DNA of 64,000 nt from Candidatus Omnitrophota bacterium (GTDB lineage Bacteria; Omnitrophota; Gorgyraeia; JAHIPI01). The position numbers were made by a program, and so were the translations under genes. Where the stretch lies: assembly GCA_016783745.1 (NCBI GenBank), contig JADHVZ010000004.1, forward strand, positions 3,544 through 67,543, read 5' to 3'. Of this stretch, positions 22,090 to 55,133 are shown in pieces. How positions within the stretch are numbered: the stretch's first letter is position 1; each line of letters opens with the position of its first letter. The notes under the pieces are model-generated. The model was not told where the DNA came from. It worked only from the letters and a program-made list of their open reading frames with translations, and searched no databases.

Positions 22090-22583
22090 TCGATAAGGAT
22101 CAGTTAGTTTTAAGGTTGAAAAAAATCAAGCTTGTAGCCCTGGATGTGGATGGCGTGCTTACGGACGGGCGGGTTTATTTAGATGCCGACGGCCGGGAAA
22201 CACGGGCCTTTAATTTCAAGGATATCATGGGCATATCCCGCCTAAAAAAAAGAGGCGTCAAGGTAGCGTTAATATCGGGAGAAAAAAACGCTGTTATTGA
22301 CCGGTTCTGCCGGAAGCTCGGCATAGAAAAAAACTATCAGAACTGCAGGGAAAAGGATAAGGCTATTGATGAGCTCACGGATTATTACAAGCTGAAGCCA
22401 GAGGATATATGTTTCATAGGTGATGATATTAATGATATCCCCGTTTTTAAGAAGGTAGGCCTGGCCGTAGGCGTGTCCAACGGCTGGGAAGGTATAATGG
22501 GCAGCGCGCATATAGTTACGAAAAATAAAGGGGGAAACGGCGCTGTCAGGGAGATTTGCGAGTTAATCATAGCTAACATATGA
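22086..22583 (+). CDS. HAD-superfamily KdsC/YrbI-type phosphatase (3-deoxy-ulosonate 8/9-phosphate phosphatase)
   Basis: 'LVALDVDGVLTDGRVYLDADGRE...FIGDDINDIPVFKKVGLAVGVSNG' carries HAD motif I DxDGVLTDG and motif IV GDDxND at KdsC-like size (165 aa). Confidence 0.8.
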   Translation: MIDKDQLVLRLKKIKLVALDVDGVLTDGRVYLDADGRETRAFNFKDIMGISRLKKRGVKVALISGEKNAVIDRFCRKLGIEKNYQNCREKDKAIDELTDYYKLKPEDICFIGDDINDIPVFKKVGLAVGVSNGWEGIMGSAHIVTKNKGGNGAVREICELIIANI

Positions 22584-22593
22584 GGATCGCGTT

Positions 22594-23382
22594 ATGAAAG
22601 TTTTGTGTGTGATTCCTGCCCGCGGCGGCTCGAAGACTGTGCCAAAAAAGAACCTGGTGGAAATAGGCGGAAAATCGCTGCTTTATTACGCGGCGGAATG
22701 CGTGAAAAACTCGAAGGTTATTGAGCGGACAGTGCTTTCAACTGATTCCGGCGAGATAGCCGCGCAGGCCCGGTCTTTGGGGCTGGAAGTCCCGTTTATG
22801 CGGTCGGCGGAATTGGCCACGGACGAGACTACGGATTGGCCCGTTTTCAACCATTGCATGGAATGGCTGAAAGATAATGATAGATATGTTCCTGATATTG
22901 TTGTCCATTTGCGGGTGACTTCACCTTTTGCTTTTAAAATGCACGGTGGACCGACAGGCGATTTTTCACGTAATTGGATATGCGTCAAAAGAGAAGAGAT
23001 CATAGATGGGGTTGTAAATATGCTGGCTGAGAGGCCGGAACTAGATTCTGTGAGGACTGTAGAACTTGTCCGGAGTACGCCTTATAAAATGTGGCGTATG
23101 GAGGGAGGAGTAATAAAGCCTGTTATCCGGACAAGCGAAAAAGAGATCTATAATCAGCCCAGGCAAAAGATACCGCCGGCCTACCTCCAGAACGGGTATG
23201 TGGACGCGGCGCGTTATTCAACTATTATGCGAAAGAAATCAATGAACGGCGAAACAATAGGCGGCTACGTGCTCGATTGCGATTATTTTGTGGACATTGA
23301 CGGATATGCCGATATTGAACTGGGAGATCTGATCTACCGCCAGCTTATGGAGGAGGAGAGCGTAGATGAGTATAAAAGATAA
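22594..23382 (+). CDS. NeuA-like cytidylyltransferase, paralog 3
   Basis: 'VLCVIPARGGSKTVPKKNLVEIGGKSLLYYAAE'. Confidence 0.8.
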   Translation: MKVLCVIPARGGSKTVPKKNLVEIGGKSLLYYAAECVKNSKVIERTVLSTDSGEIAAQARSLGLEVPFMRSAELATDETTDWPVFNHCMEWLKDNDRYVPDIVVHLRVTSPFAFKMHGGPTGDFSRNWICVKREEIIDGVVNMLAERPELDSVRTVELVRSTPYKMWRMEGGVIKPVIRTSEKEIYNQPRQKIPPAYLQNGYVDAARYSTIMRKKSMNGETIGGYVLDCDYFVDIDGYADIELGDLIYRQLMEEESVDEYKR

Positions 23383-24193
23383 GTTTGATATAAAAGGCAG
23401 GGTCGCGGTTATAACGGGCGGCGCGGGGCTATTGGGCAAAGAATTCGCCAGGACATTGCTTGAGTACGGAGGAAAGGTCGTTATGGCGGATATCGCGCGC
23501 GATAGAGGCGCGGCCGCGCTTAAAGAGATCGGGCAAGGATCTAAAGGCGACATTGTCTATGAGTATGTCGATGTCAGCTCCAAAGATTCGGTTGAGAAGA
23601 TGGCGCAGTCCGTTAAAAAGCGTTTCGGAAAGGTGGACATATTGATCAATTGCGCGGCGCTCGATCCTAAATTCGAAGCCGGCGATATGGAAAAACACGG
23701 CTATGCATTCGAAGATTATCCGTTGGAGTCATGGGAAAGAGCGGTATCCGTCAATCTAACGGGCGCCTTTTTATGCTGTCAGGTGATCGGCCGGATCATG
23801 ATATCTCAGGAGAAAGGCGTTATTGTGAACGTCGCCTCTGAGATCGGTATGATCGCTCCTGACAATAGGATCTATATTAAAAAGGCGGAACCGGAAAAGA
23901 AAAGATTTAAACCGATCGACTATCCTGTCACAAAAGCGGCGCTTATACATCTTTCGAGGTATCTCGCGTCTTATTGGGGAGATAAGAATATTCGAGTCAA
24001 TACGCTGACACCGGCAACTGTTTATACAGATCAGGATGATGAGTTGGTGAAAAACATCTCTTACAGGGCGATCCTCGGCAGGATGTCCGATAAAAACGAA
24101 TTCTGCGGGGCGCTGATATTCTTGGTCTCTGACGCCTCAAGTTATATGACGGGCGCGAACCTCGTAGTGGACGGCGGCAGGACGGCTTGGTAG
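23366..24193 (+). CDS. short-chain dehydrogenase/reductase (classical SDR)
   Basis: 'VAVITGGAGLLGKEFARTLLEYGGKVVMAD' is TGxxxGxG; 'NCAALDP' and 'YPVTKAAL' give the YxxxK dyad. Confidence 0.8.
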   Translation: MSIKDKFDIKGRVAVITGGAGLLGKEFARTLLEYGGKVVMADIARDRGAAALKEIGQGSKGDIVYEYVDVSSKDSVEKMAQSVKKRFGKVDILINCAALDPKFEAGDMEKHGYAFEDYPLESWERAVSVNLTGAFLCCQVIGRIMISQEKGVIVNVASEIGMIAPDNRIYIKKAEPEKKRFKPIDYPVTKAALIHLSRYLASYWGDKNIRVNTLTPATVYTDQDDELVKNISYRAILGRMSDKNEFCGALIFLVSDASSYMTGANLVVDGGRTAW

Positions 24194-24219
24194 GGATTAC
24201 GTAGGGAAATGCCGGGTTA

Positions 24220-24350
24220 GGTTTACGGTTTTCGGTTCACGGTTTACGGAAAATCCAATGGGATTTAAAAAACCGTACACCGTAAACCGTACACCGTAAA
24301 CCGTACACCGTAAACCGTACACCGTAAACCGTACACCGTAAACCGTAAGT
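24220..24350. repeat. heptad-periodic repeat block: 30-bp element GGTTTACGGTTTTCGGTTCACGGTTTACGG (24220-24249), small hairpin AAATCCaatgGGATTT (24252-24267), then 14-bp tandem repeat CCGTACACCGTAAA x about 5.5 (24272-24350)
   Basis: Read directly from the sequence. The 30-mer is the reverse complement of the tandem-repeat consensus (CCGTAAACC...), so the two can pair. It ends 12 nt before ATG 24363. Confidence 0.85.
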
Positions 24351-24362
24351 GAGATATTCAAA

Positions 24363-25286
24363 ATGAACAACATAACAATCGGCATCATGCAGGGTCGGCT
24401 GATGCCTCCGGTCAACGGTCAGCTGCAGGCATTTCCGGGAAAGGGGTGGGAGAAGGAATTTTCCCGGGCCGGCCTGTGCGGGTTGGACACGATCGAATTC
24501 ATTTTTGACACGGATGAAGAATATAATCCGCTTCACGATGACGAAAAAATCGAACGGATCCGGGAATTATCGAGGGATCATAGGATCAAGGTATCCTCCG
24601 TATGCGCCGATTACTTTATGAGGAGAGGCTTCCTGCGGGTGGCTGACGAGGAGCGTAAGAAAAATGTGGAAATGCTCCGGAAGCTGACTTTAAGATGCGA
24701 TAAAATCGGTATCCGGTATATCGTAATACCGTTTGTGGATGAATCCGAAATAAAAACGGCTGAAGAGCTGTATATAGTACGGGACGCATTGATCGAAGCG
24801 CTTGACGGCACAAAAGGGTGCGATGTCTATTATGCGCTTGAGATGTCGCTTCCGGCCGAGAGAATCGTCCCGTTTCTGAAGGAGGCCGGCCACCCTCGGT
24901 TGAAGATCAATTATGATACGGGAAACTCAACGGCCCTCGGTTATGATCTAGCCTCCGAAATAGAGCAGCTGGCTCCGTGGATCGTGGATGTGCATATTAA
25001 GGACAGGAAGGTGGGCGGAGGAAGTTGTATCCTCGGAGAAGGCGATACTGACTTTGACGGTGCGTTTAGGGCGTTGGCCGGGATCGGCTTCCGCGGCCCG
25101 TATATCATCCAGGCGCAGCGCACCGGAAACGAGGCCAAACTCGCAAAGCGCTATCTGGGGTTCGTGAAAAATATGATCTCTCGCTCGCGCAGAGCATACA
25201 GCTCTCATTCTGTCTCCAAGGGGAGTTTCCCCTTAACCGTAAACCGTGAACCGAAAACCGATAACCGAAAACCGAGAACCGAATAA
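24363..25286 (+). CDS. sugar phosphate isomerase/epimerase (xylose-isomerase-like TIM barrel)
   Basis: 'GLDTIEFIFDTDEE...YIVIPFVDESE...DVHIKDRK' with metal-binding E/D/H spacing is typical of the AP-endonuclease-2/xylose-isomerase-like TIM-barrel family. The C-terminal 20 aa are encoded by the downstream heptad repeat. Confidence 0.6.
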   Translation: MNNITIGIMQGRLMPPVNGQLQAFPGKGWEKEFSRAGLCGLDTIEFIFDTDEEYNPLHDDEKIERIRELSRDHRIKVSSVCADYFMRRGFLRVADEERKKNVEMLRKLTLRCDKIGIRYIVIPFVDESEIKTAEELYIVRDALIEALDGTKGCDVYYALEMSLPAERIVPFLKEAGHPRLKINYDTGNSTALGYDLASEIEQLAPWIVDVHIKDRKVGGGSCILGEGDTDFDGAFRALAGIGFRGPYIIQAQRTGNEAKLAKRYLGFVKNMISRSRRAYSSHSVSKGSFPLTVNREPKTDNRKPRTE

Positions 25287-25288
25287 GG
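25220..25288. repeat. hairpin GGGGAgttTCCCC (25220-25232) followed by heptad repeat CCGTAAACCGTGAACCGAAAACCGATAACCGAAAACCGAGAACCGAA, an inverted copy of the 24220-24249 element
   Basis: 25238-25261 equals the reverse complement of 24226-24249 over 24/24 nt (28/30 over the full element). Confidence 0.8.
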
Positions 25289-25293
25289 ATAAT

Positions 25294-26331
25294 ATGAAGA
25301 TACTAATGGCAGGGCTGGGGTCTATCGGCCAGCGGCACCTGCGGAATATACTGTCTATTTTAGGGGAAGATGCTGAGATAAGCGCATACAGGGTCCGTAA
25401 GGGGCAGGAGGTGTTTACCGATAAGCTGTCAGTTTTAAAAGGCGCCCGGCTGGAGGAAGAATATAAATTCAGGTCTTTTGATTCTCTGGACGAGGCGCTT
25501 GCCGGTTCTCCTGAAGCGGTGTTTATTTGCAATCCGACCAGTATGCATATACCGGTCGCGCTGGCCGCCGCGAAAAAGGGCTGCCACCTCTTTATCGAAA
25601 AACCGCTTTCGCATGATCTCGAGGGAATTGAAGAGCTTGAGTCTATTGTCAGGGAGAAGGGCCTGACGGCGCTGGTGGGTTTCCAGCTGCGTTTCCACCC
25701 GTGCTATTTGAAATTAAAAGAGCTGATAGCGGAGGAAAGGGCCGGCAATATTTTATCGGCCTTCATAGAGGTAGGCGAATTTCTCCCCGCATGGCATAAA
25801 TGGGAGGACTACCGAAGGATGTATGCCTCACGAAAAGACCTGGGCGGAGGCGTTGTACTGACTCAGATACACGAAATCGACTACGCGATGGACATTTTCG
25901 GAGCGCCGCAGCGCATATGCGCTGCCGGCGGACATTTGAGCTCCCTCGATATCGACGTCGAAGATACCGTTGACGCGCTCATGGAATTTTCGCACAAAGG
26001 GAGGAGGCTGCCGGTCAGTTTTCATATGGATTATCTGCAGAGGCCCCCAAGGCGGGGATGCAGGATAATCGGGGAAGACGCGATTATCGCAATGGATTTG
26101 GTTGCGCAGAATGTAGTTATAATCAATAGTGACGGCAAAGAGGAGAGGTTCGAATACGGTGACTTTTCGAGAAATCAGCTATTTATAGATGAAATAAAAC
26201 ATTTCTTCGCATGTATCCGGGCCGAGGAGAAGCCGCTGGTCGACATATCAACGGCGCTTCAAGGGATGAAGACAGCCATGGCCGTCAAGGAATCGATGAA
26301 TAAGAGAAAAAAGGTATTATTGAAATTTTAA
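25294..26331 (+). CDS. Gfo/Idh/MocA-family NAD(P)-dependent sugar oxidoreductase (start reassigned to ATG 25294; the ORF-track N-terminus is translation of the heptad repeat)
   Basis: 'MKILMAGLGSIGQRHLRN' N-terminal Rossmann, then '...CHLFIEKPLSHDLEGIEEL', the EKP motif of the Gfo/Idh/MocA family. Confidence 0.75.
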   Translation: MKILMAGLGSIGQRHLRNILSILGEDAEISAYRVRKGQEVFTDKLSVLKGARLEEEYKFRSFDSLDEALAGSPEAVFICNPTSMHIPVALAAAKKGCHLFIEKPLSHDLEGIEELESIVREKGLTALVGFQLRFHPCYLKLKELIAEERAGNILSAFIEVGEFLPAWHKWEDYRRMYASRKDLGGGVVLTQIHEIDYAMDIFGAPQRICAAGGHLSSLDIDVEDTVDALMEFSHKGRRLPVSFHMDYLQRPPRRGCRIIGEDAIIAMDLVAQNVVIINSDGKEERFEYGDFSRNQLFIDEIKHFFACIRAEEKPLVDISTALQGMKTAMAVKESMNKRKKVLLKF

Positions 26332-48128: not shown

Positions 48129-49057
48129 TGGAGACAGCGCCTGCGAATATAGGCCGACTCAAAAGTAAGTTCGACGGAAGCGTATCCCTTTTATGCTGGG
48201 CATATAACGAAGAGGCCTCTGTCGGCGATTTTCTCGAAAGGGCGTCGGCCTTGATGGAAGAGGCGGTGGAAGACTATGAGATCGTGATGATAGATGACGG
48301 GAGCACTGACAAGACTTATGAGATCGCCAGAAGTTTTCAGGAAAAAGACCCCCGCTTGAAAATATTCAGAAATGAGAAAAATTCCAATGTGGGTGTTTCG
48401 ATCCCAAAAGCTATAAAGAACGCGTCAAAAGAGTATCTATTCTGGCAGACCGTTGATTGGTGCTACGATATCTCAAATTTGAGGATCTTTCTCGAATATT
48501 TAAAGTCATATGATATTGTTCAGGGGGTAAGGAGAAGGCCGGTAAAAGTAAAGGGTAGATTGATAAAGCCCATAGCGGCGGTTATAAGACTCTTTGGCAT
48601 AAAACATCTGACCAGGCGCTCGGATACGCTGATGAAAGCGGTGATCTCAGTGATCAACTATAGCCTTATAAGAGGTCTTTTTGGGTTGCCCGTATCCGAT
48701 TTTCAAAACGTTACTTTTTACCAGACAAAAATGGTCCGATCTTTGAGATCGGAGGCGAAGAGCGCTTTCACCAATCCGGAGCTCTTGATAAAATCTTATT
48801 GGAAAGGGGCATCCATAAAAGAAGTCCCCATAAGTTTTATACCGAGGACAAAAGGGAAGCCTAAGGGCACGGCTTTGAGATCTGTGGCAAATGCCGTTAA
48901 CGACATACTTAAGCTGCACTTTAGATGGGTGATACTGGGCAGAAGGGATCTCATCCGGCCGGGTAAAGTGCACAGGCTCGATCCGTCTGAGTGGAAAGAA
49001 GGATATGAAGGTATTACTGATAATCCCGCCTACAGACTTGAAGAAGTCTTACGGTAA
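48125..49057 (+). CDS. GT2 polyprenyl-phosphate sugar synthase (DPM1/ArnC/GtrB-like)
   Basis: 'SLLCWAYNEEASVGDFLERA...YEIVMIDDGSTDKTYEIAR' gives the GT2 DxD context in a compact 310-aa DPM1-like architecture. Confidence 0.7.
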   Translation: MMETAPANIGRLKSKFDGSVSLLCWAYNEEASVGDFLERASALMEEAVEDYEIVMIDDGSTDKTYEIARSFQEKDPRLKIFRNEKNSNVGVSIPKAIKNASKEYLFWQTVDWCYDISNLRIFLEYLKSYDIVQGVRRRPVKVKGRLIKPIAAVIRLFGIKHLTRRSDTLMKAVISVINYSLIRGLFGLPVSDFQNVTFYQTKMVRSLRSEAKSAFTNPELLIKSYWKGASIKEVPISFIPRTKGKPKGTALRSVANAVNDILKLHFRWVILGRRDLIRPGKVHRLDPSEWKEGYEGITDNPAYRLEEVLR

Positions 49058-50435
49058 GCTGAGAAAATTTTTAAATCCGCAGCCGTCGATAGGTATCGCT
49101 TATATAGCGGCGGTTTTAAGAAAAAACGGCTATGATGTAAAAATAACCGATGCCTATGTCGATGAAAACGGCATAGAAGAGATCATGGATGCGGTAAAGG
49201 AGTATTCGCCCGGTGTCATCGGCATAAGCGTTTTGACTGCATCTGCGGATGTGGTTTACGAAATATCAAAAACCATACGCGCGAGATTTCCTTATATTAA
49301 AATCGTAATGGGGAATATTCATGCGTCTCTATTTTCAGACGAGATATTATCAAAGGGCTATGCCGATTTCATAGTGCATCGCGAGGGAGAGCTGACTATG
49401 CTTGAGATCCTTCGAATGCTGGAGACCGGCGGAGATGCCGAAGATATAAAAGGCGTGTCCTTTAAAAAAGAAGGCACCGCCGTACATAATCCTATGAGGC
49501 CGTTTATAGCCGAACTCGATGATCTTCCTTATCCGGCGTGGGACTTGTTTCCGCTGGATAAATATTCTACCGACCCAAGGTCCGAGCTGAAAAGGGGCGC
49601 GGTTCCGATGGAATTACTTGTGACCAGAGGTTGCCCGTTTCAGTGCACATTCTGCTCCTCAAGAGAAGATAGAAGCCTTGGCAGTAGATATAGGATGCGG
49701 GATCCTAAAACGGTAGTGAACGAAATGGTCTATATGTACGAGAGGTACGGCAAGGATACCTTCGCATTTATGGATTTGGCATTTCCTCTTGTAAAGGAGC
49801 ACGCATACGGGTTGTGCGATGAGATAATTAATAGGGGATATGGAGAGAGGTTTATTTGGCATACCGAATGCCGCGTTACACCTCTTGACCAGGAACTGCT
49901 TTTTCATATGAGGAAAGCGGGTTGTGTGAGGTTATACCTCGGTATCGAATCCGGCAATGACGAAACCCTTAAGGCACTTAAGAAAAACTGCACGACAGAA
50001 GATGCTAGAAATGCCGTGAAAATGGCCCATGGGGCCGGGATGGAAGTCGACGGGATGTTTATGATAGGCCTGCCGGGCGAGACCGAGGAAATGATAGAGA
50101 AGACCGTTGATTTTGCCATAGAGCTGGATGTAAGATATGCGATCTTTAATCTATTCGTCCCTTAGCCCGGGTGCGAGCTCTGGGATACGTTGCGGGGAGA
50201 AGGCAAAGTTAAATATACGAACTGGAGCGACTTTACCTCGTATCCGACGTATTCTGGCGGCGAGCCGATATATGTCCCTGACGGCATTACCAAAGACAGG
50301 CTTATGGAATTGCAGTCCCGTGCCATGAAAAGGTTTTATGTAAGGCCGAGGTTTATTTTTGATGAGTTCAAAAGGTTTAAAATAGATAAGACGGCGCATT
50401 ATTTGGAAGGGTTGAAAGGTATCCTTTTATGGTGA
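49005..50435 (+). CDS. B12-binding (class B) radical SAM enzyme, paralog 3, interrupted by an in-frame TAG at 50163-50165
   Basis: 'KVLLIIPPTD...IGIAYIAAVLRKNGYDVKI' is the B12 domain, and 'TRGCPFQCTFCSS' is CxxxCxxC. ORF-track pieces 49005-50165 and 50190-50435 are in the same frame, separated only by TAG. The downstream piece 'PGCELWDTL...' continues the conserved 'P-x-PG(T/C)ELW' C-terminal motif. Confidence 0.7.
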
Positions 50436-54916: not shown

Positions 54917-55115
54917 TCATGATAATTAAATCACAAATAACAAGCATCAAATCACAAACAAATAACAATCACCAAATTCCAAATCTCAAACAAGCTGTTT
55001 TGAATTTTGAATTTGATATTTTGAATTTGTTTGTTATTTGTAATTTGTGATTTGTAATTTATTCGTTATTTGTTTGTAATTTGTAATTTCATGCTAATTT
55101 GAAATATACATCGAT
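54917..55115. repeat. about 200-bp intergenic inverted array of degenerate heptamer repeats: left arm A/C-rich (AAATCAC/AAATAAC units), right arm complementary T/G-rich (TTTGTGA/TTTGTAA units), centred near 54995-55000
   Basis: Read directly. Left: aaatcacaaataacaagcatcaaatcacaaacaaataacaatcaccaaattccaaatctcaaacaagc. Right: gttttgaattttgaatttgatattttgaatttgtttgttatttgtaatttgtgatttgtaatttattcgttatttgtttgtaatttgtaatttc. Confidence 0.8.
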
Positions 55116-55133
55116 TTGTTCAAGGGAGAATTT

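Follow-up and report, generated by a model that had tools for sequence, protein, structure and literature searches.

Heptanucleotide repeat arrays at two adjacent cistron junctions of a glycan operon in an Omnitrophota bacterium

Three heptad arrays around an isomerase gene

The stretch of DNA analysed here, referred to as the window, comprises 64,000 nt of the genome of a Candidatus Omnitrophota bacterium (assembly GCA_016783745.1, contig JADHVZ010000004.1, positions 3,544-67,543, forward strand), in which three arrays of tandem seven-nucleotide repeats surround the gene for a TIM-barrel sugar-phosphate isomerase/epimerase. The pyruvate kinase encoded in it is identical to an NCBI protein assigned to Candidatus Omnitrophota. 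All of the long open reading frames (ORFs) of the window lie on one strand, and a scan for Pfam and related domains, covering 50 window ORFs of at least 150 aa each, outlines a glycan cluster of about 60 kb that contains four NeuB paralogues, cytidylyltransferases, radical-SAM and B12 enzymes and glycosyltransferases. This is an old, tightly packed nonulosonic-acid/glycan operon, where overlaps between genes are the rule and the median gap is -4 nt. Only two true non-coding spacers of more than 100 nt are found within it, at 24194-24362 and 54917-55133. The first of these, 169 untranslated nucleotides on the + strand as delimited by comparison with the corresponding junction of three related loci (L002, L003 and L004), separates the isomerase gene from the cistron upstream.

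That upstream cistron encodes a short-chain dehydrogenase (SDR; 23366-24193, + strand; Pfam adh_short_C2, E = 4.5e-46) and ends with a TAG codon at 24191-24193. The isomerase, of 307 aa, is encoded at 24363-25286 on the + strand (Pfam AP_endonuc_2, E = 2.3e-25), and is followed by a GFO/IDH/MocA oxidoreductase gene, likewise assigned with Pfam (GFO; 25294-26331, + strand), with an AAGGA Shine-Dalgarno sequence and an ATG at 25294. This ATG is the true start of GFO, as the N-terminus MKILM is aligned in all four loci.

The arrays are all composed of one heptad family, CCGNNAA when read on the + strand. The first, the left arm, lies at 24220-24249 in the minus orientation and consists of 4.3 heptads (GGTTTAC, GGTTTTC, GGTTCAC, GGTTTAC and a final GG; period 7 in TRF, and also recovered as one member of the inverted-repeat pairs); it is the reverse complement of CCGNNAA units, and is G-rich. 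Next to it is the loop of a local hairpin (24251-24266, + strand), which holds a 6-bp mini-stem, AAATCC/GGATTT, visible both in the sequence and in the minimum free energy structure. Array 2 (24270-24348, + strand) is a perfect tandem repeat of the 14-bp unit AAACCGTACACCGT, and its 5.6 copies, equal to 11.3 heptads, give 100% matches in TRF, bearing out the claim of the initial annotation that a 14-bp array with 7-bp periodicity precedes the isomerase start. On the mRNA strand it is C-rich and G-poor, with five C and two G in each AAACCGTACACCGT unit. Its 3' end is 14 nt short of the isomerase ATG, leaving a short leader (24349-24362, + strand) with a putative ribosome-binding site, the weakly Shine-Dalgarno-like GTGAG that precedes the ATG by 9 nt. 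Array 3 (25235-25283, + strand) is made of seven degenerate heptads (AACCGTA, AACCGTG, AACCGAA, AACCGAT, AACCGAA, AACCGAG and AACCGAA; TRF period 7, 7.0 copies, 83% matches) and ends 10 nt from the GFO start. Directly 5' of it, read from the sequence and the junction comparison, is a mini-palindrome, GGGGA-GTT-TCCCC (25220-25232, + strand), which lies in the same insert of about 75 nt.

The first 24 nt of array 3 are a perfect complement of the left arm, within a longer inverted repeat whose arms of 33 nt (24217-24249 and 25237-25269) are 91% complementary and 987 nt apart. The 30-mer and reverse complement that had originally drawn attention to the locus are likewise as described, 28 of 30 positions being identical: the 30-mer matches with no mismatches at 24220-24249 (minus strand) and with two at 25237-25266, where shuffled sequences give an expectation of 0.00, and has no other match in the 64-kb window. 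The composition from CCGNNAA heptads is equally well founded, since a three-heptad pattern has 17 matches in the window against 0.04 expected, every one of them inside these three arrays, and periods 7 and 14 are the sole short periodicity to pass a scan of the 64 kb. Furthermore, the left arm can pair with array 2, as had been proposed, in eight registers of 85-89% complementarity. Array 3 repeats array 2 in direct orientation as well, so that the inverted bracket around the isomerase gene is one of several pairings available within the heptad family. Taken as head-to-tail 7-nt units, the three arrays exceed chance at 4.3, 11.3 and 7.0 copies according to TRF, which is the defining property of a heptanucleotide simple-sequence repeat (SSR). 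Two of them, the left arm and array 2, are within the spacer; the third belongs to inserted DNA from which a non-homologous protein tail is now translated. Array 3 supplies the 17 final codons of the isomerase ORF and produces a spurious extension of GFO starting from a GTG at 25246, both of which had been pointed out from the sequence at the outset.

Insertion into an ancestral operon

A scan of species genomes for the isomerase found no relative, and the loci used for comparison come instead from a search of contigs that encode isomerase homologues. The closest homologues, in L002, L003 and L004, are 67%, 64% and 60% identical, respectively, to the isomerase of the window. All three loci have the same order of genes as the window (HAD, CTP-transferase, SDR, isomerase, GFO and NeuB), and both the SDR/isomerase and the isomerase/GFO junctions are either overlapping or 8-10 nt in length; at the former there is an 8-nt spacer or an overlap. 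None of the three contains a period-7 array. Because the relatives keep the gene order without the repeats, the isomerase gene is an ancestral member of the operon, into which the repeats were inserted. The window lineage gained approximately 160 nt at the SDR/isomerase junction and approximately 75 nt at the isomerase/GFO junction. The arrays occupy the sites of former translational coupling.

The second insertion is reflected in the isomerase itself. The C-terminus of the protein has around 23-26 residues more than those of its homologues, the tail beyond a conserved 'FV' being 39 aa in length compared with 13-16 aa in the relatives; nearly all of the 120 homologues listed are 267-296 aa long and cover 81-93% of the query. 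This follows from the insertion of about 75 nt having moved the isomerase stop codon downstream, and the C-terminal tail, as well as the false N-terminus of GFO, are by-products of it.

Nucleotide identity to L002 is not uniform along the locus. It is around 90% in SDR, where the proteins are 94% identical, around 70% from 24363 to approximately 26300, covering the isomerase and GFO, and 90-95% from NeuB onward. The alignment has a gap at 24194-24362, and it is exactly there that identity falls from 90% to 70%. More broadly, the region 22100-26300 is a recombination mosaic relative to L002, in which HAD and CTP-transferase are also at about 70% and the breakpoints fall at gene boundaries. On this alignment, the first heptad element is placed exactly at a recombination breakpoint and array 3 inside the divergent block. 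As the block from 24194 to approximately 26300 includes GFO, array 3 is no recombination boundary; an exchange of the isomerase alone as a cassette was rejected on the same grounds. The operon nonetheless offers a clean natural comparison, in that the same genes are found with and without the arrays in relatives sharing about 90% nucleotide identity over most of the locus.

Inverted repeats of 28/30 identity, about 1 kb apart in a surface-glycan locus, are in keeping with the idea, raised in the initial annotation, that the 1-kb isomerase segment is inverted or excised by a site-specific recombinase, causing phase variation of the glycan. Such an invertible or excisable cassette is close to refuted, and we consider it highly improbable. 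The repeats are simple-sequence arrays, one of which matches array 2 in direct orientation too; the segment is a complete internal cistron and is promoterless, no promoter-like site being found in the spacer at 24194-24362, where scan counts are at chance level; and no recombinase or transposase domain was detected among the 50 long ORFs of the window. The relatives lack the repeats altogether, and the block that diverges from L002 extends past array 3 into GFO. Moreover, a single orientation is seen in four independent assemblies or unitig sets, and the window, L125, L001/L254, L126 and L255 are all collinear at the assembly or unitig level, and no inverted form of the isomerase segment is present in any assembly or unitig reaching the arrays. 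The proposal that an element of the miniature inverted-repeat transposable element (MITE) type had delivered the isomerase gene fares no better, as the relatives retain the gene in place and differ only in being without the repeats, no target-site duplication can be identified, and the 30-mer occurs just twice in the 64 kb, with no copies in approximately 13 kb of flanking sequence or in viral contigs. Retention of the isomerase in an identical context by loci devoid of the repeats is an outcome that the initial annotation itself had listed as refuting the cassette and MITE readings. Integron attC sites, which have the core GTTRRRY, were considered too and rejected, because the heptads fit no such core and the gene order is conserved in L002, L003 and L004.

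Hence the arrays neither brought the isomerase gene to this position nor invert it. They appear, from the comparison of these loci, to have arisen or inserted in one Omnitrophota lineage at two adjacent cistron junctions. More generally, inverted repeats around a gene of a glycan locus provide no basis for postulating an invertible switch when those repeats are simple-sequence arrays.

Repeat number and predicted RNA structure

One further assembly spans array 2. This is L125, an assembly from the European Nucleotide Archive (ENA) derived from another sample, which represents a near-identical strain (99.85% identity over 11.8 kb). It differs from the window by four single-nucleotide polymorphisms and one indel, the latter being the loss of exactly one 14-bp unit from array 2. 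The Logan unitigs of two runs all break inside this array. A difference of exactly one unit is what slipped-strand mispairing predicts, and so the suggestion that slippage varies the number of repeats and thereby tunes expression gains some support in its first part, that of copy number.

The proposal that the repeats form an RNA structure in the 5' untranslated region is also supported to some extent. The spacer by itself is predicted to form a hairpin, the left arm pairing with array 2, with a folding energy of -56.3 kcal/mol (z = -2.95), a value equalled by none of 200 shuffled sequences, with a local stem of around 30 bp. When 24194-25300 is folded as one RNA, a long-range stem is instead predicted between the left arm and array 3, consisting of 24 contiguous perfect base pairs and enclosing the isomerase cistron. 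The duplex energy of the left arm is -54.7 kcal/mol with array 3 as compared with -45.7 kcal/mol with array 2, and in the partition function over the same 24194-25300, 28.6 base pairs are expected between the left arm and array 3 and 0.5 between it and array 2. These models imply that transcription would produce the local stem first and that the long-range stem would be the more stable of the two. The combination of a heptamer SSR before a start codon and a long predicted hairpin, with transcription presumed from the operon context, matches the arrangement of the hmw1A leader in Haemophilus influenzae. An intrinsic terminator was considered and rejected, as there is no terminator-like site in the spacer and the count for the region equals that expected from shuffling. 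Searches of Rfam in E-value mode returned only sub-threshold matches to generic miRNA hairpins.

We favour, with moderate confidence, the reading that the three arrays are simple-sequence repeats of the heptanucleotide type, which is a known class comparable to the short tandemly repeated repetitive (STRR) sequences, and that they probably tune or cut the operon mRNA. The mechanism envisaged begins with the perfect array 2 gaining or losing units by slipped-strand mispairing. In the polycistronic mRNA, the left arm would pair first with array 2, forming the stem of approximately 30 bp in any of the eight registers, or alternatively with array 3, through 24 perfect base pairs that would enclose the whole isomerase cistron. 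Long double-stranded stems of this type could be cut by RNase III or impede exonucleases. The ancestral translational coupling of SDR, isomerase and GFO would in this way have been replaced by a structured, separately initiated cistron, and the number of unpaired C-rich heptads between the stem and the ribosome-binding site may set expression, as in the hmw1A leader. Loading of Rho onto the C-rich unpaired repeats might have a further effect on the mRNA. Slippage is the inferred source of the variation in array 2, and the effect on the operon mRNA, also inferred, may be small, or the arrays a neutral by-product of slippage.

Several observations weigh against this interpretation. Both of the assemblies that differ in array 2 are built from short reads, such that the missing unit could be an artefact of repeat collapse. 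Rfam 15 yields no match in the window at gathering thresholds, and the heptad element has no homologous copies from which covariation could bear out an RNA structure. Array 3 is within a coding region, where passing ribosomes would open up the long-range stem, and cleavage at array 3 would leave the isomerase mRNA without a stop codon. Lastly, the exact match of 24 nt between the left arm and array 3 includes the order of the variant heptads (TAAA, TGAA, AAAA), an identity that is unexplained by independent slippage at the two sites. It suggests either a copying event or a dispersed element, the latter being kept as the main rival and taken up below with the heptad hairpins of other genomes.

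The composition of array 2 bears on another explanation, that of a Rho-dependent attenuator. Rho needs RNA that is C-rich, unstructured and untranslated. On this account, array 3 and the roughly 50 nt of array 2 that stay unpaired would be C-rich, G-poor loading sites, with repeat number determining polarity on the isomerase and the downstream genes; the five C and two G of the AAACCGTACACCGT unit are suited to this, as is the presence of an untranslated spacer of 169 nt in an operon whose genes otherwise overlap. Array 3 is translated, however, and would hence be masked, and we regard attenuation by Rho as improbable.

Heptad elements elsewhere and comparison with known systems

Heptad arrays are not restricted to the isomerase locus in this genome. 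Several loci per genome is a pattern typical of SSRs, and besides the arrays described above there are heptads at 54929-55101 and at 14403-14509 of L259, with none in L002, L003 or L004. The former are in the second long spacer of the operon, 54917-55133, a hairpin between the ATP-sulfurylase and pyruvate-kinase genes. Its two arrays (54929-54977 and 54998-55101) place AAATCAC/AAATAAC units opposite TTTGAAT/TTTGTAA units, a heptad family differing from CCGNNAA; its predicted folding energy is -46.8 kcal/mol (z = -2.9), and three assemblies agree on its sequence. The L259 spacer, also present in L260 and L261, belongs to the same genome and is approximately 3 kb past the window end, flanked by a methyltransferase gene and a gene for a 716-aa dehydrogenase fusion. 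It contains TAGGTGA, TAGGTAG, TAGGTAA and TAGGTGG units followed by a GGGGAAAACCC mini-hairpin, and the heptad spacer as a whole forms no significant hairpin (z = -1.1). A further apparent gap in the window, of 263 nt at 50166-50428 after a B12/radical-SAM ORF (49005-50165), was rejected as a spacer since the sequence remains coding-like in another frame, suggesting instead that the gene carries a frameshift or that its sequence is in error there.

A five-heptad pattern with an ACCG core was found at no fewer than 120 loci in species-representative genomes, including those of Saprospiraceae, Gemmatimonadota, Verrucomicrobiota, Chloroflexota, Acidobacteriota, Actinomycetota, cyanobacteria and another Omnitrophota metagenome-assembled genome. 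Among the 120 loci listed, most are solitary direct arrays, nine have the inverted-then-direct hairpin layout of the isomerase locus and three have arms 0.2-0.6 kb apart. In metagenomes, the pattern CCGTAAACCGTNAACCGNAAACCG is present in at least 120 contigs, and the matches listed fall into three groups: a hairpin family from soil, assorted bacterial arrays, and telomeric runs resembling those of eukaryotes. The contigs of the last group (L146, L150, L169, L174, L205, L212, L233, L240, L249 and similar; GC content 0.41-0.50) consist almost wholly of CCCTAAA-like heptads, CCGTAAA variants among them, that continue for kilobases. These contigs were set aside, being most likely eukaryotic telomeric or subtelomeric DNA of the plant or algal type, and as such false positives for heptad scans. 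No matches were found in viral contigs, and a literature search with the heptad sequence returned primers and unrelated text only.

The soil family takes the form of a hairpin like the repetitive extragenic palindromic (REP) sequences, aaagCCGTAAACCGTGAACCGTAAACCGtgacaag - loop - cttgtcaCGGTTTACGGTTCACGGTTTACGGcttt, of which near-identical copies lie directly 3' of stop codons; the hairpin can also be written aaagCCGTAAACCGTGAACCGTAAACCGtgacaag...cttgtcaCGGTTTACGG..., and it is found in many soil metagenome contigs of high GC content (L137, L138, L143, L162, L165, L166, L175, L177, L183 and L194, together with L216, L217, L228, L234, L241, L243, L244, L246 and L247). At the variable heptad position, the pairs formed between the arms are mostly complementary (A-T 24, G-C 12, G-T 9, A-C 4, other 2). 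In Rfam, this hairpin has sub-threshold miRNA-like matches only. Heptad hairpins with conserved loops also recur at several sites per contig in L014 and L072. In L076 (1265-1611) and L081 (408-599) the hairpins are nested, outer GACGGTG-type arms enclosing inner TTTGAAT- or GAATGCA-type arms, which shows that heptad stems can be composites of two heptad families.

Such recurrent hairpins give substance to the view that a dispersed REP- or MITE-like heptad hairpin was inserted at the two junctions in two (or one and a half) palindromic copies, array 2 being the expanded right arm of the first and array 3 the surviving right arm of the second. This would account for the 24-nt exact match between the left arm and array 3, with its order of variants. 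The conserved-loop hairpins found at several sites of one contig in L014 and L072 provide precedents, as does the repetition of the aaagCCGTAAACCGTGAACCGTAAACCGtgacaag...cttgtcaCGGTTTACGG... hairpin after stop codons in many contigs, with arms whose variable position is complementary more often than not. Set against this are the absence of any further 30-mer or CCGNNAA array from the 64-kb window and the approximately 13 kb of flanking sequence, the lack of a target-site duplication or of homology beyond the heptads at either the outer or the inner borders, and the absence of the exact 24-mer from all of the metagenome contigs listed and from the viral scan. Overall, a dispersed element seems unlikely to us.

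One association does emerge between heptad arrays and a particular class of gene. Arrays adjoin, often in inverted orientation on both sides, genes for four-helix-bundle proteins of TIGR02436, an Avd-like family of 23S rRNA intervening-sequence proteins (L074 1502-2207, L097 1127-1772, L103 1287-1822, L077 5133-5674, L232 8835-9355, L063 1-521, L236 8-222 and L184 6582-7122). In 1.7 Mb of loci, all selected for heptads, eight of the nine TIGR02436 genes found have an array within 160 bp; the enrichment may be biased, as the loci were chosen for containing heptads. No description of this association was found in a literature search. That heptad stems occur in many phyla, the enclosed gene usually being of this four-helix-bundle type, is the basis for a further explanation, in which the arrays of the window belong to a widespread, undescribed class of heptad stems that enclose single genes and act as brackets for RNA excision or processing. 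Array 2 would then decide between local pairing, with the cistron expressed, and long-range pairing, with it cut out or silenced, to give a switch governed by repeat number and operating by competition between RNA stems. In L074, L097, L103, L077 and L232, a single gene is indeed found between inverted ACCG-core arrays 0.4-0.6 kb apart, and the long stem bracketing TIGR02436 genes is similar to the one that RNase III processes in 23S intervening sequences. At the isomerase locus, by contrast, the enclosed gene is an ancestral metabolic one, and no four-helix-bundle or TIGR02436 gene is present in the window. We think it improbable that the arrays are part of such a class.

The same genes bear on the hypothesis that the direct and inverted heptads are operator-like sites for a putative DNA- or RNA-binding protein. 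The omega repressor of inc18 plasmids, for example, binds runs of 7-bp WATCACW units, and the arrays share a regular 7-bp phase, an invariant CCG core, which recurs in many unrelated genomes, and variable positions 4-5; the arrays adjoining Avd-like genes in eight of nine cases are also compatible with it. Nevertheless, no candidate binding protein is evident among the long ORFs of the window, the relatives run the same operon without the sites, and, as the three heptad spacers of this genome are made of three unrelated units, three different proteins would be needed. This, too, we consider quite improbable. In the spacer at 54917-55133, three AATCAC[AC] units fit the WATCACW heptad of the omega repressor, although they are not contiguous, and the fit is probably a coincidence.

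Returning to simple-sequence repeats as the preferred reading, the locus can be compared with several systems, among them the REP sequences and bacterial interspersed mosaic elements (BIMEs) of enterobacteria. These are imperfect palindromes of intercistronic or 3' operon regions that can protect upstream mRNA and modulate the expression of cistrons; REPs have no tandem heptads, are present in hundreds of copies and are mobilised by the RAYT transposase. The palindromes of the window resemble them in their intercistronic position, and differ in being built of tandem heptads.

Few functions of heptanucleotide repeats are settled, those of a few pathogen genes aside. Such repeats have been known since the cyanobacterial STRRs were described, and in PMC4679880 and PMC4692102 they are given as the most abundant class of long SSR (LSSR) in most prokaryotic genomes, with polymerase slippage proposed as their origin; the same papers credit Mrazek et al with showing, in 2007, that long 7-nt SSRs are the commonest class. 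In Geobacter metallireducens, for instance, there are families in which four to five heptamers are repeated in tandem (PMC2700814). The arrays described here share with STRRs and LSSRs their tandem 7-nt units in spacers, the occurrence of several loci with different units, a sporadic distribution across phyla and, apparently, a length that differs between close relatives. They differ in that a single operon has two arrays of one family at neighbouring junctions, one inverted so that long stems are possible, and in that one array is now part of the 3' end of a coding region. The GGGAATC repeats of Xanthomonas are similar in being intergenic heptamers that vary in length between close relatives, sometimes as inverted pairs able to form stem-loops (PMC4692102); those repeats are G-rich and form quadruplexes, which the CCGNNAA units cannot do. 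TAACTGA repeats, known from marine Beggiatoaceae, cyanobacteria and Bacteroidetes, likewise lie mostly just upstream of start codons, a few nucleotides away, in Beggiatoaceae; they have no downstream gene function in common, and a post-transcriptional role has been proposed for them (PMC4679880). The unit there is a different one, and the sets are short (two to six copies), with only one of approximately 170 being an indirect repeat, whereas hairpins are prominent here.

The closest likeness is to hmw1A and hmw2A of H. influenzae, in which, according to PMC12721329, a heptamer SSR just before the start codon, (ATCTTTC)n in the hmw1A leader, forms one arm of a long hairpin with about ten repeats; copy number shifts by slippage and sets expression, which is inverse to the number of repeats, and RNase III cleaves and so processes the stem. 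In that system the partner arm is a non-repetitive G-rich tract and the element follows a promoter, while here the partner is an inverted heptad array and the element, known from sequence alone, is intercistronic. Were the idea of such an RNA-stem rheostat to be borne out for these arrays, it would extend the hmw1A mechanism from a pathogen adhesin to control within an operon of an uncultured phylum.

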